DNA of 64,000 bases from Escherichia coli O157:H7 (GTDB lineage: Bacteria > Pseudomonadota > Gammaproteobacteria > Enterobacterales > Enterobacteriaceae), in NCBI RefSeq assembly GCF_013167455.1, contig NZ_CP038328.1; one strand, given 5' to 3'. Made by a program: the position numbers. This document shows positions 42,001-45,000 of the stretch, piece by piece; the first letter of the stretch is position 1; each line of letters starts with the position of its first letter.

Positions 42001-45000
42001 TTTTTCATCGAATGAACTCCAAAAAACACACAATAATATTAGGCTTAGCCTAATGCAATTGTCAATAGGCTATGCCTAACGCTTCGAGAGTAGGTATTGC
42101 CTAATGCGATGCGCATAGGAGACTATTAAGCAATGCTTAGTGGTAAAGACTTAGGCCGAGCGATAGAGCAGGCCATTAACAAAAAAATTGCATCAGGAGC
42201 CGTCAAATCAAAGGCGGAAATCGCACGTCATTTCAAAGTCCAACCACCATCAATCCATGACTGGATTAAGAAAGGTTCGATAAGTAAAGACAAACTTCCA
42301 GAACTATGGCGTTTCTTTTCTGATGTGGTTGGTCCAGAGCATTGGGGGCTTAACGAATACCCCATACCAACCCCATCCACTTCAGATACAAAAAGTGAAC
42401 TTTTAGACATAAACAGCCTTTATCAAGCCGCCTCTGATGAAAAAAGAGCAATTGTGGCTTTCCTCTTATCTGGAAATGCTACGGAGCCTAGTTGGGTTGA
42501 TCATGACGTTCGTGCCTACATTGCCGCAATGGAAATGAAGGTAGCTAACTATCTGAAAAATCAAGAATCAAAACGGAAAAGCCAGAACATCACCAAGACA
42601 GGAACTTAAACTTATATGGTCCGACGGGAAATTCCTAGTTCCCGTTAGTTAACTCCTACTACCTCTCCCACAAACCATCACCTATTAGGTCGCACCCAAA
42701 TCATTAGGCGTAGCCTATTGACAAGCAATTAGGCATTTCCTATAGTTTTCCCATACCAACCCATCCCGTCCCACACAATACAGGGCAATACCTAGAGTTA
42801 CCCGGCAGTGGTCAGGGATTAAGTAGCCAGCCCGAGGCGTAAGAACATGACGGCAGGGTTCAACTTTAACTATGCAGCAGGTTTTTGTTCCGCTACCCCG
42901 GCGTTAAGGGGATATGAGGTCAGCATGGATACTCTTGATCTTGGCAACAACGAATCTCTGGTGTGCGGCGTGTTTCCCAACCAGGACGGCACGTTCACCG
43001 CGATGACGTATACCAAAAGCAAAACGTTTAAAACCGAATCTGGCGCGCGTCGCTGGTTAGCAAGAAACTCTGACTAATGAAATCTGGTAATTAAGGAATC
43101 CTCCACGGGGGGAGAGTGGTGCACACGCGCCGGACACAAGCAAGCATCCGGCATGCTCTTTAACAATCTGGATATCCATAACAGTAAAAATCTACAGATT
43201 GCCGTTCAGTTTTCTGGCCAACTCTTCAATAGATGGAGGTGATACGTAATCCGGATTTTTATTCATAAGAAACTGATTTTCACAGTACAGGCACCTGCTT
43301 TTATGAAAAAATTCATATTCTCTAACCGGGAATGGCTGAAGTATCGATACTATCTTTTGTCCAAAACATTTTGGACAAAGATGCATGATTATGCTGCCGC
43401 CGTTCACGGTTACCTCCTTCGAGTACACAAAAGTTCCCGACTCAAGTTGGCTAAGGATATAACCTTCCGTCTGAGCCTCAAAGTTTTCAAATTCTGCAAT
43501 TTTAGCTTTGAGAGAAGCATTTATTTCTTGATAAGTGCCCACCAGCTCAACGAGAGACACGCATTCGCGCTGAATAGATGCAAGCTTTGAGTTCAGTTCA
43601 CCAATAGCCGCATTTACTTCAGCTTGAGTTTTTGCCTCGTTCATTAGTTTTGCAATCTGGGCGGTTTCACGAATAGCCGTCATTGCTGCCGTTAATTCAG
43701 CGATCACATTCAATACTCTTATTGTTGTTGGGGATATCCAGATTAACAAGATCCTTGTTGTTGGGGAATAACGGGGACCACCTCGCCTGACGTGGTAAAA
43801 AGCAGGCACACAACACGAAAGCACACGGCGAGGGACACCATTAAATGGTGGCTTAAGCAATCACGCGAAGCGCAATCTGCCATTATGACCGATGAAATCC
43901 CGTTAGATGATGCACTGTTACAATTGCGGGAATTTATCGACGAAAACTCCGGTGAATTTTTTGTTCAGGTCTGGGGAAATGGAGCCAACTTCGACAACAC
44001 GATTTTGCGCCGTTCATACGAACGGCAGGGGATCCCCTGCCCGTGGCGTTACTACAACGATCGCGATGTACGCACAATCGTTGAGCTGGGGAAAGCCATA
44101 GACTTCGATGCCAGAACGGCTATTCCATTCGAAGGTGAGCGCCATAATGCACTTGATGACGCCCGTTACCAGGCAAAATACGTTTCAGTTATCTGGCAAA
44201 AACTGATCCCGAGTCAGGCTGATTTTTAATGTTCAACCGTCGCCAGTTGTCGTTGATATTCTGCAACTGGCGCGTTCCGGAGTGATAGCCATGAGCGAAC
44301 AGTACCTGATAACGCTCGACGAGTGGAAACCAAAACGGTTCAGTCTCCCAATAACAAACACTACCCTGGTGAAATACGGAAAACTAGGATACATCGTTCC
44401 AAGACCACAAAAAATTCGTGGGCGTTGGCTGATAGATCGCCGAGCAGTATTTGTTGGGCCTGGTGAAACGGGAATTGCGCCGGAAATTCATACTGGCGAT
44501 GATGATGCACTGAAGGAGATTTTAACTCATGTCACCGAGGCCACGAAAAAACAGCACTGACGTAGCCGGTCTTTACGAAAAGTTTGATCGCAGAACTGGC
44601 AGAGTTTACTACCAGTATAAAAATCCTGTGACTGGAAAATTTCACGGACTCGGAACAGACAAAGGTAAGGCAGAAAAAATCGCTTCCACAGCCAATCAGC
44701 GAATAGCTGCAGCAGAAGCTGAATATTTCATGCGCAAAATTGATGAAAGTCCGTCAGCAACAAAACGTCGGGGTATCAGATTAAAGGCATGGGTTGATCG
44801 ATATCTGAAAATACAGGACACGCGACTGAAAAATGGAGATATTGCAGCTACAACTCACAAAGAAAAAACTCGAATGGCTGCATACCTGGTTTCCCGTCTG
44901 GGAAACCACCCATTGAAAGAACTGGAAGTAAGAGACTTTGCATTAATACTGGATGAGTGGCTGGATAAAGACATGGTCAGTACAGCGAGAGTAAATCGTG

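Follow-up and report, generated by a model that had tools for sequence, protein, structure and literature searches.

Rip1 ("ring interacting pore 1") is a prophage-encoded protein that, according to a conference report (PMC12908700), blocks an incoming phage; in the same report 12 Rip1 molecules cap the 11-subunit terminase ring, an arrangement suggesting a pore. According to a preprint (bioRxiv 10.64898/2026.04.30.721860), what Rip1 senses is the small terminase subunit. The cryo-EM structure PDB 9oox, titled "HK446 Rip1 in complex with T6 small terminase" and released on 2026-02-04, contains 12 Rip1 chains in each of which 124-126 of 164 residues are modelled and about 40 N-terminal residues are absent. 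Another prophage system, the tail assembly blocker Tab of Pseudomonas phage JBD26 (gp31), is an 83-residue protein with no similarity to known domains; its target is tail assembly, which it blocks via the tape-measure protein, and it has an anti-Tab gene as partner (PMC10884400). HkaP of phages HK620, HK629 and HK630 is annotated "putative superinfection exclusion protein" by position only; in the literature on hkaP no experiment on HkaP function was found, the one relevant paper dealing with the hkaP flanks as insertion sites. The Rip1 family and the HK446 Rip1 structure are already known; what is new is the recognition of an E. coli O157:H7 ORF as a diverged member.

The ORF lies in a lambdoid prophage of Rac type that E. 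coli O157:H7 carries between potB and potC, within a window of 64,000 nucleotides, which is the whole stretch of DNA that was analysed. It is flanked by a DUF1391/YdaF-family gene on one side and on the other by a 3'-5' exonuclease gene that PGAP labels "incomplete, missing N-terminus". A preliminary description had placed it, on the strand opposite to its neighbors, between a YdaF-like gene and a truncated exonuclease, and had put its GC content at ~42%, lower than that of its surroundings; the RefSeq/PGAP annotation agrees in placement, the minus-strand ORF stands against flanking genes of the opposite orientation, and GC is 41.9%, versus 50% in 40000-43100 and 46.6% in 43800-45650. The same description had taken the ORF for cargo of one gene occupying the early-left exclusion slot, which is correct; more exactly, it is the sieB slot, the Rac gene order being kilR - sieB (opposite strand) - ydaF - ydaG - racR and the position of the ORF relative to ydaF and racR being that of Rac sieB. 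Rip1-family genes are counter-oriented to their neighbors in all 11 contexts inspected: the O157 prophage, HK620, HK630, HK446, PhiR49_1, 689R2, RcWaterboi, DMS3, VW-6B, and Salmonella and Enterobacter prophages. The O157 gene has the properties of a moron, judged by context and sieB-promoter homology: it is prophage-encoded, stand-alone, counter-oriented and equipped with its own predicted promoter. In hundreds of E. coli genomes, many O157:H7 strains among them, the product is annotated "hypothetical protein". Coordinates of the features are collected in Table 1.

Table 1. Features of the predicted rip1-family cassette, in coordinates of the window
Feature	Coordinates	Strand	Basis or remark
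Weak candidate terminator hairpin AGCATGCCGGATGCT (gene strand), then TGCTTGTGT	43143..43157	-	read from sequence; low confidence
Inverted copy of promoter -10/+1 segment (GCTCTTTAACAATCTGGATATCC ATAACAG...), just past stop codon	43155..43190	+	inverted repeat
Predicted rip1-family gene, 171 aa, GTG start, TAG stop	43192..43707	-	ORF call, PGAP start, homologues
Stop codon of the gene	43192-43194	-	
ATG taken as start in the preliminary description; Met9 of the 171-aa protein	43681..43683	-	probably not the start codon
AAGAG, Shine-Dalgarno-like, 8 nt before the GTG	43716..43720	-	read from sequence
Direct repeat copy 2 (TCCCCAACAACAA)	43722..43734	-	first base aligns with annotated +1 of P22 sieB mRNA
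-10-like hexamer TAATCT	43740..43745	-	by homology only; below consensus-scan threshold
Direct repeat copy 1 (TCCCCAACAACAA)	43755..43767	-	~-34 to -22 of predicted start
Conserved upstream element TGCCTG-N7-CCACnTCAGGCnnnGTGG, 5' part of sieB-type promoter region	43778..43808	-	pattern match, homology

Since sequence profile, predicted fold and genomic context agree, the ORF product is assigned to the Rip1 family of prophage anti-phage proteins as a diverged member. A profile built from 12 family members matched chain L (Rip1) of PDB 9oox at E=9.8e-39 over 150 residues (profile positions 3-152), the O157 protein alone matched the same chain at E=3.6e-7, and its match to PHROG 1244 had E=2.7e-56. 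Structure prediction, which had been proposed as a check along with profile searches, gave an AlphaFold model with pLDDT 93 whose only significant Foldseek matches in the PDB were 9oox_L and 9oox_M, with probability 1.0, target-normalised TM 0.77, and 28% identity at an rmsd of 3.1 over 120 columns. The profile searches had a divided outcome: Pfam, NCBIfam and PADLOC returned weak coiled-coil noise only, while PDB 9oox and PHROG 1244 were matched. None of Pfam, NCBIfam and PADLOC (2023) holds a model for the Rip1 family, and this is why current defense finders miss the O157 gene. The family is large, with 3,997 cluster representatives at 50% identity (E<=1e-3), and includes HK620 HkaP, so that the gene is not the orphan of unrecognised family for which it had been taken; nor is the function undescribed, as a cryo-EM structure shows HK446 Rip1 bound to a phage small terminase and the protein is cited as a defense protein. 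The suggestion of a defense role, by contrast, is the best reading through homology to Rip1.

The AlphaFold model of the 171-residue protein consists of helices 2-24 and 28-79 followed by a beta domain at 84-150. Of the ~70-residue N-terminal coiled coil in the preliminary description, the long helices are confirmed. Its C-terminal zinc-ribbon-like motif is well supported: the beta domain contains C111 and C114 (CPKC) together with C139 and C142 (CLYC), which are the only four invariant columns among 132 homologues, and it is a putative zinc ribbon with a predicted zinc site. Y83, G91, Y95 and L123 (the last in a SILQ motif) occur in at least 90% of the 132 homologues, S121, I122 and Q124 of SILQ reach 90% in a 12-sequence alignment, and all seven residues are present in the O157 protein. 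Positions 5-12 are hydrophobic or small and almost uncharged across the 132 homologues. The protein has no classical transmembrane segment; the best 18-residue hydropathy of the N-terminus is 0.72, and the highest 18-residue Kyte-Doolittle mean of the whole protein, 1.23, falls inside the zinc-ribbon domain.

The ORF itself is real and ends where first described, at 43192, whereas the length of ~163 aa taken from the ATG gives way to 171 aa from a GTG at 43707. The latter is the start in the RefSeq/PGAP record WP_000559928.1; homologues are mostly 171 aa long with the N-terminus MIAE..., residues 1-8 align with their conserved N-terminal segment, and Met at position 9 is found in only 14 of 132 homologues. 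The start codon is thus probably GTG 43707 rather than ATG 43683, as judged from the alignment. The candidate Shine-Dalgarno position is purine-rich in the aligned cassettes.

The 100 nt upstream of the ORF are homologous to the lambda and P22 sieB promoter region and also to the region upstream of Rac sieB. The two identical 13-bp repeats 33 bp apart that had been pointed out in a putative promoter region are indeed there: both are exact copies of TTGTTGTTGGGGA, the only two in the 64-kb window, and by alignment they sit at ~-34 and +1 of the P22 sieB mRNA start. An exact 13-mer pair at this spacing is not chance. Because the first base of copy 2 aligns with the P22 sieB +1 (NC_002371.2), transcription is predicted to start at about 43734. 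The -10-like hexamer aligns with TAAACT in P22, TAAAAT in HK446 and TATAAT in other cassettes; a consensus sigma-70 scan of 42800-44300 found no promoter, and a search of Rfam (E<=1, 42600-44300) gave one chance miRNA match only. Phage PhiR49_1 retains both repeat copies, as does a Salmonella prophage whose protein is only 69-70% identical, and the promoter-region motifs of PhiR49_1, an inducible phage, are intact and identical to those of O157.

Farther upstream, the conserved element contains two interleaved complementary pairs, GCCTG/CAGGC and CCAC/GTGG, for which compensatory variants can be read by eye in Rac (GCCCGG/CCGGGC) and in an Enterobacter prophage (TTGC/GCAG). Besides its occurrence in the window, the TGCCTG-N7-CCACnTCAGGCnnnGTGG pattern was matched in 120+ viral contigs, and at least 20 further small genes of unknown function have this promoter element in front of them. 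RNAalifold gave no consensus structure beyond the stem fixed by the search pattern. Copy 1 of the repeat sits in the loop of a partly degenerate palindrome, which in the O157 allele keeps 6/8 pairs and is weaker there than in relatives; covariation is moderate, with 83% of cells paired versus 24-55% in slid controls and 73% in shuffles, and the G-T and A-C counts of 12 and 18 do not indicate which strand would fold. Two other explanations of the repeats were set aside: a Shine-Dalgarno-sequestering hairpin whose loop would hold copy 2 agrees with HK446, lambda and 689R2 and is not conserved in the O157 lineage, and likeness to a DnaA box, or alternatively a sigma-32 -10 element (CCCC...), is partial and inconsistent across repeat types.

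From lineage to lineage the two repeats co-vary, much as they would if a specific factor read them, and zinc ribbons are often nucleic-acid binders, two facts that would suit a zinc-ribbon regulator of prophage or host expression, possibly one that binds its own upstream repeats. Such a role is very improbable. The same repeat types precede unrelated cargo genes, namely SieB and several uncharacterised families, and therefore do not track the Rip1 protein; moreover, the solved homologue (9oox) binds a protein ring, and the O157 protein has no match to a DNA-binding family in Pfam or NCBIfam.

At the other end of the cassette, the inverted copy of the promoter segment just past the stop codon (Table 1) forms with it an inverted repeat of 26 nt that is 81% complementary. 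This inverted 3' copy is conserved behind Rip1 and also behind unrelated cargo genes in other cassettes, and it marks the 3' end of the cassette. A terminator scan of 42800-44300 detected none, the candidate hairpin of Table 1 included; PhiR49_1 has a clear hairpin and T-run at the equivalent place.

The gene is intact, conserved and under purifying selection, with dN/dS of 0.14-0.24. Among 5,426 complete E. coli genomes, 646 cover the 801-bp locus to at least 80%; the best 20 of these 646, mostly O157 strains, carry it at 100% identity. In strain TR01, which has the matching locus, the prophage is decayed: the portal gene is frameshifted, a truncated rusA is fused to a truncated DUF6645 gene, and the exonuclease next door to the ORF is truncated. 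This decay, together with the weakened palindrome and the negative consensus promoter scan, could be taken to mean that a defective prophage carries the gene along as a passenger, silent or decaying, with no current function in O157:H7. That appears quite unlikely, however, given the selection and the identity among the best-matching genomes just noted, a full-length ORF in which every conserved residue is present, and promoter-region motifs that match those of inducible PhiR49_1; in addition, decaying prophages commonly retain defense genes, e.g. sieB in Rac.

Most likely, the O157 protein is a lysogen-expressed sensor that would assemble on the small-terminase ring of a superinfecting phage and form a lethal membrane pore. 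In the lysogen the gene would be transcribed from a counter-oriented promoter of its own, of the sieB type, with the predicted start near 43734, and the Rip1-family protein alone would be harmless. Upon superinfection the small-terminase ring would dock Rip1 protomers via their C-terminal zinc-ribbon domain, the clustered N-terminal helices, beginning with the conserved uncharged segment, would form a pore in the inner membrane, and the infected cell would die or lyse before progeny are made. The protein has no classical transmembrane segment; pore formation would depend on oligomerisation. Binding of the ring as a multimeric cap is predicted for the O157 protein from the HK446 Rip1 - T6 complex, and pore formation with abortive infection from the uncharged N-terminus, the family name and the conference report. 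The mechanism is put together from the title of PDB 9oox, the conference report and one sentence that cites Rip1. The explanation as a whole, i.e. a diverged Rip1-family protein that is lysogen-expressed and a small-terminase-triggered pore former, is given a probability of about 0.75.

Identity to HK446 Rip1 is only ~23-28%, and trigger specificity, conceivably also output, may therefore differ from that of HK446 Rip1. A protein with the Rip1 fold might sense some other ring-shaped phage assembly, e.g. a portal, another type of terminase or a ring acting in replication, or might block packaging directly, sequestering the small terminase without forming a pore. Besides the low identity, this alternative draws on a family that is very large and diverse (the 3,997 clusters above), on a name, "ring interacting", that suits more than one target, on the homologue that in Pseudomonas Mu-like phages sits between the phage's own genes for the small terminase and the large terminase, and on the precedents of Tab (PMC10884400) and TerI, prophage systems that hit assembly or packaging without a pore. 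It is nevertheless unlikely, as family members throughout keep the uncharged N-terminal segment and the overall architecture, and the only characterised complex (9oox) is with the small terminase. An Rz-like spanin, which the position in the Mu-like phages brought into consideration, is excluded because the protein has no transmembrane segment and its gene lies on the opposite strand.

With the assignment to Rip1 comes the prediction that a prophage gene of a major pathogen brings about abortive infection when triggered by a small terminase, which is of relevance to phage therapy and to the biocontrol of O157:H7. Single-gene exclusion systems of different kinds, SieB and Rip1 among them, replace one another in this slot behind a single conserved promoter element. 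The other cargo families behind the element, which include PHROG 3311, the ECs1072 family, the ECs_2282 CxxC protein and a 106-aa membrane protein, are cheap candidates for new defense genes. A broader reading, offered tentatively and as somewhat doubtful when taken as one, is that the sieB-type element goes beyond a promoter and is a dedicated, portable platform by which anti-phage genes are expressed and regulated in lysogeny, its repeats being read by a factor or an RNA mechanism, that the at least 20 families behind it are undiscovered exclusion or defense genes, and that the O157 Rip1 clade maybe has a trigger range distinct from that of HK446 Rip1. The parts cited for the platform are the interleaved complementary segments, the co-varying repeats at ~-34/+1 and the inverted 3' copy in O157-type cassettes; if it were true, the element could guide the search for new defenses of the single-gene kind.

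Among the known systems HK446 Rip1 (gp37, YP_007111990.1) is of the same length class as the O157 protein, 164 versus 171 aa, and has the same order of helices followed by a four-Cys zinc-ribbon domain; its gene is likewise counter-oriented in a lambdoid early-left slot, behind a homologous sieB-type upstream region. It differs in having ~10 first residues that the O157 protein lacks, in its promoter repeats, CCCCTACAG versus CCCCAACAACAA in O157, and in HK97-type immunity where the O157 prophage is Rac-type. HkaP is a Rip1-family member of another clade, 28-30% identical to the O157 protein, and is encoded on the opposite strand between the cIII and N/hkaQ genes behind the same upstream element. 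TerI, compared by description, is prophage-encoded and cited beside Rip1 as a sensor of the small terminase subunit, but its reported action is to prevent DNA packaging and not to form a pore. Tab shares its slot with Rip1 homologues in Pseudomonas phages; the O157 protein is set apart from it by size (171 versus 83 aa) and description as another family, and there is no small co-oriented, anti-Tab-like partner gene beside the O157 gene. SieB of lambda, P22 and Rac shares with the O157 gene the slot, the counter-orientation and a homologous promoter region, and it too is single-gene, lysogen-expressed exclusion cargo, expression being predicted in the O157 case. However, the proteins have no sequence relationship: no SieB family match was obtained in Pfam, NCBIfam or PHROGs, and SieB and Rip1 proteins fall in separate clusters of the cargo. 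The SieB sequences surveyed have a long N-terminal hydrophobic stretch that the O157 protein lacks, and P22 sieB contains an internal esc gene of which no counterpart was seen. Membership in SieB thus fails on homology and on hydrophobic segments (maximum 18-residue mean 1.23; N-terminus 0.72).

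The gene was first taken for an orphan of undescribed function, but its product adds a new, diverged member to the Rip1 (ring interacting pore 1) family, encoded in an O157:H7 prophage at the sieB slot. Searches of Pfam, NCBIfam and PADLOC with the protein gave no match. PHROG 1244 ('unknown function') is matched at E=2.7e-56, and tblastn finds relatives in HK620 (HkaP, annotated as a 'putative superinfection exclusion protein'), HK629/630, Klebsiella and Salmonella phages, a Rhodobacter phage and Pseudomonas Mu-like phages (DMS3-25, D3112 orf25, JBD30). A 12-member profile matches 3,997 cluster representatives (50% identity) at E<=1e-3; the family is thus large and the gene no orphan. 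One solved structure is matched by the same profile: chain L of PDB 9oox, named 'ring interacting pore 1 (Rip1)' (E=9.8e-39; E=3.6e-7 with the window protein as single query). The family is no longer undescribed either. The guess of exclusion or defence cargo in the preliminary description was well placed. The entry, released 2026-02-04, is entitled 'Cryo-EM structure of the Escherichia phage HK446 Rip1 in complex with the Enterobacteria phage T6 small terminase', and the solved protein is HK446 gp37 (100% tblastn match).

An AlphaFold model built from 132 homologues (pLDDT 93) places a beta domain after two helices, at residues 2-24 and 28-79, and Foldseek against the PDB gives significant matches to 9oox_L and 9oox_M only (probability 1.0, target TM 0.77, 28% identity). 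That the trigger or output differs in this diverged clade is unlikely. Only the four cysteines form invariant columns among the 132 sequences, with Y83, G91, Y95 and L123 of the SILQ motif nearly invariant. 9oox contains 12 Rip1 chains of 164 residues, of which about 124-126 are modelled, so that some 40 residues at the N-terminus are missing from the structure. Across the aligned family, positions 5-12 hold hydrophobic or small residues with almost no charge, and a conserved lysine comes next, a composition that fits a putative membrane-active tip. By analogy with the family, the lysogen would express the gene and the product would be inert until an invading phage builds its small-terminase ring; the zinc-ribbon domain of the Rip1 protomers would then cap the ring, the gathered N-terminal helices would breach the inner membrane, and the infection would abort.

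The open reading frame of the preliminary description is real, as read from the window sequence, and that description is accurate, with a correction to start and length: PGAP and the homologues place the start at GTG 43707 (171 aa) rather than ATG 43683 (163 aa), and the 8 residues so added are part of the conserved N-terminal segment. The corresponding PhiR49_1 gene is annotated as 243 aa from a start upstream of the conserved promoter repeats, which is almost certainly over-extended, 171 aa being backed by homologues and PGAP. The gene indeed runs opposite to the genes on either side of it (a DUF1391/YdaF-family gene and a truncated exonuclease) and has the lower GC ascribed to it (41.9% vs 47-50% around).

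The 20 complete E. coli genomes that match best, mostly O157:H7 or O157 strains, carry the 801 bp around the gene at 100% identity, and 646 of 5,426 complete E. coli genomes cover at least 80% of this locus. In strain TR01, which carries the same prophage as the window, the gene lies within a lambdoid prophage that occupies a site between potB and potC. Its immunity region is of the Rac type (racR, an HTH gene and a ydaT-family gene), and genes for type III effectors (nleL, espN and espK) lie near the potB end together with IS remnants. The prophage looks defective, with a frameshift in the portal gene, a truncated rusA joined to a likewise truncated DUF6645 gene, and, adjoining the Rip1-family gene, a 3'-5' exonuclease that lacks its N-terminus; small and large terminase genes are still present. 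That the gene is a silent passenger of this decaying prophage is nevertheless quite improbable, since the reading frame is intact, dN/dS values of 0.14-0.24 against the PhiR49_1 and Salmonella alleles indicate purifying selection, and the promoter motifs are intact.

The window and PhiR49_1 share homology over one stretch only, which begins ~105 nt before the GTG and ends ~45 nt beyond the stop codon; this delimits the cassette, and the upstream part is conserved more strongly than the coding sequence. The two TTGTTGTTGGGGA repeats reported upstream are exact, with no other exact copy in the 64-kb window. Both are also exact in a Salmonella prophage whose protein is 69-70% identical, and they are kept with one and three changes in an Enterobacter prophage (protein 50-52% identical). 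The 110 nt upstream of HK446 rip1 show 87% identity to the sequence upstream of sieB in lambda and P22, and in the P22 record the matching stretch carries the annotated sieB promoter and RNA start site. The alignment runs from an upstream element through repeat copy 1, a -10-like hexamer and repeat copy 2 to a purine-rich Shine-Dalgarno sequence and the start codon. The repeat reads (A)CCCCTACAG in lambda, P22 and HK446 vs TCCCCAACAACAA in the O157 lineage; on the basis of this alignment the local repeats are a version of the repeat built into sieB-type promoters. A transcript start near 43734 is predicted by this homology. A consensus promoter scan found no promoter, and all aligned members have a poor -35 region. 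O157-type cassettes keep, behind different cargo genes, an inverted copy of the -10/+1 segment, which might serve as a convergent antisense promoter, as a partner for 5'-3' pairing or as a terminal inverted repeat of the cassette.

Coordinates of the features discussed (L numbers are fetched comparison loci with coordinates of their own)
Feature	Location	Strand	Remarks
Rip1-family gene	window 43192-43707	minus	
Cassette	window, roughly 43148-43815		
Upstream element, TGCCTG-N7-8-CCACnTCAGGCnnnGTGG	window 43778-43808	minus	31-32 nt; first in alignment; 5' part of lambda/P22 sieB promoter region
Repeat copy 1	window 43755-43767	minus	about -34; next after element
-10-like hexamer			between repeat copies; here TAATCT, P22 TAAACT, HK446 TAAAAT, others TATAAT
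Repeat copy 2	window 43722-43734	minus	begins at +1
Inverted -10/+1 copy (GCTCTTTAACAATCTGGATATCC...)	window 43155-43190	plus	just past stop codon
sieB upstream match	lambda 34396-34481		
sieB upstream match	P22 29652-29736		
sieB promoter	P22 29690-29720		annotated
sieB RNA start site	P22 29727		annotated
Prophage carrying the gene (strain TR01)	L135; L001 105-338		
PhiR49_1 Rip1-family gene	L004 3764-4492		annotated 243 aa
Rip1 homologue, DMS3-25	L003 3938-4465		opposite strand to terminase genes
Rip1 homologue, VW-6B gp25	L008 3968-4474		opposite strand to terminase genes
SfV 81-aa ORF	L136 2501-2743 (SfV 25054-25296)	plus	PHROG 3311
KilS small RNA, Rac	L137 2906-3003	kilR strand	

Scanning viral contigs for the element, 31-32 nt long, gave at least 120 stretches (L013-L132). 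Everything fetched, which includes loci gathered earlier for Rip1, contains 132 occurrences; the ORF that follows is a Rip1-family gene in 30 and SieB in 15, the rest falling into more than 20 other small-protein clusters, e.g. PHROG 3311, the ECs1072 family, an ECs_2282-type CxxC protein and a 106-aa membrane protein. Ten cluster representatives searched in PHROGs and NCBIfam, the ECs1072 family and an ECs_2282-type protein among them, yielded no known function; the element may mark further exclusion or defence genes. One of the ten, from phage SfV, occupies a like slot, counter-oriented between the early-left genes and cI. This 81-aa ORF behind the element is without RefSeq annotation and overlaps orf33, annotated on the other strand, an annotation that may be wrong.

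Two layouts occur. In the short one the start codon lies ~40 nt after the element, and GTGG then TATnCT, resembling an extended -10, are followed by a single palindrome with a related motif in its loop. In the long one (class A cassettes in L001-L134) the start codon lies ~70 nt after the element, and the two repeats, at a constant spacing of 33-35 bp, vary jointly between cassette lineages, with at least seven joint variants (CCCCTACAG, CCCCAACAAC, CCCCAACATAA, CCCCAATGCAA, CCCCAACGA, TTCCACAGACA and TTCCACAGTCA). Identity of the repeats within a cassette is 9.7/11 vs 4.65 for shuffled partners, a value reached in 0 of 10,000 shuffles, with the contrast overstated by varying register; the joint variants are plain to see despite this caveat. 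A palindrome with copy 1 in its loop has 83% of cells paired vs 24-55% in slid controls and 73% in shuffles, a moderate covariation in which the folding strand is indistinguishable. By eye, two interleaved complementary pairs of the upstream element show compensatory changes in Rac and the Enterobacter prophage, GCCCGG/CCGGGC replacing GCCTG/CAGGC in Rac. The repeat variants do not track the cargo protein, and because the same repeat types precede unrelated cargo genes the repeats are not read by the cargo protein itself. That the product is a nucleic-acid-binding regulator is therefore the least probable of the alternatives, the more so as its homologue binds a protein ring. We found no prior description of an element common to sieB and many cargo genes with co-varying repeats, nor a mechanism for the co-variation or the inverted copy.

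The order in E. coli K-12 Rac is kilR, kilS, sieB (opposite strand), ydaF, ydaG, racR, and that in the window is racR, the ydaF-like gene, the Rip1-family gene (opposite strand) and the exonuclease remnant; the Rip1-family gene thus replaces sieB in position. KilS, annotated as a small RNA in Rac, lies ~60 nt from the sieB upstream element. Family members are counter-oriented to the surrounding operon in all 11 contexts inspected: lambdoid phages have them either in the early-left region or next to the repressor, N and a ral-like gene flank the HK446 copy, which is on the opposite strand, and in RcWaterboi the place is within the early operon. Rip1 and TerI are named as systems sensing the small terminase subunit in a 2026 preprint (bioRxiv 10.64898/2026.04.30.721860). 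Pseudomonas Mu-like phages encode the Rip1 homologue between their own genes for small and large terminase, on the other strand, so that a family reported to sense small terminase is encoded right beside a small terminase gene; the annotation of VW-6B gp25 as 'ATP-dependent chaperone ClpB' looks wrong. In JBD26 this Mu-like slot holds an unrelated defence gene, tab (PMC10884400).
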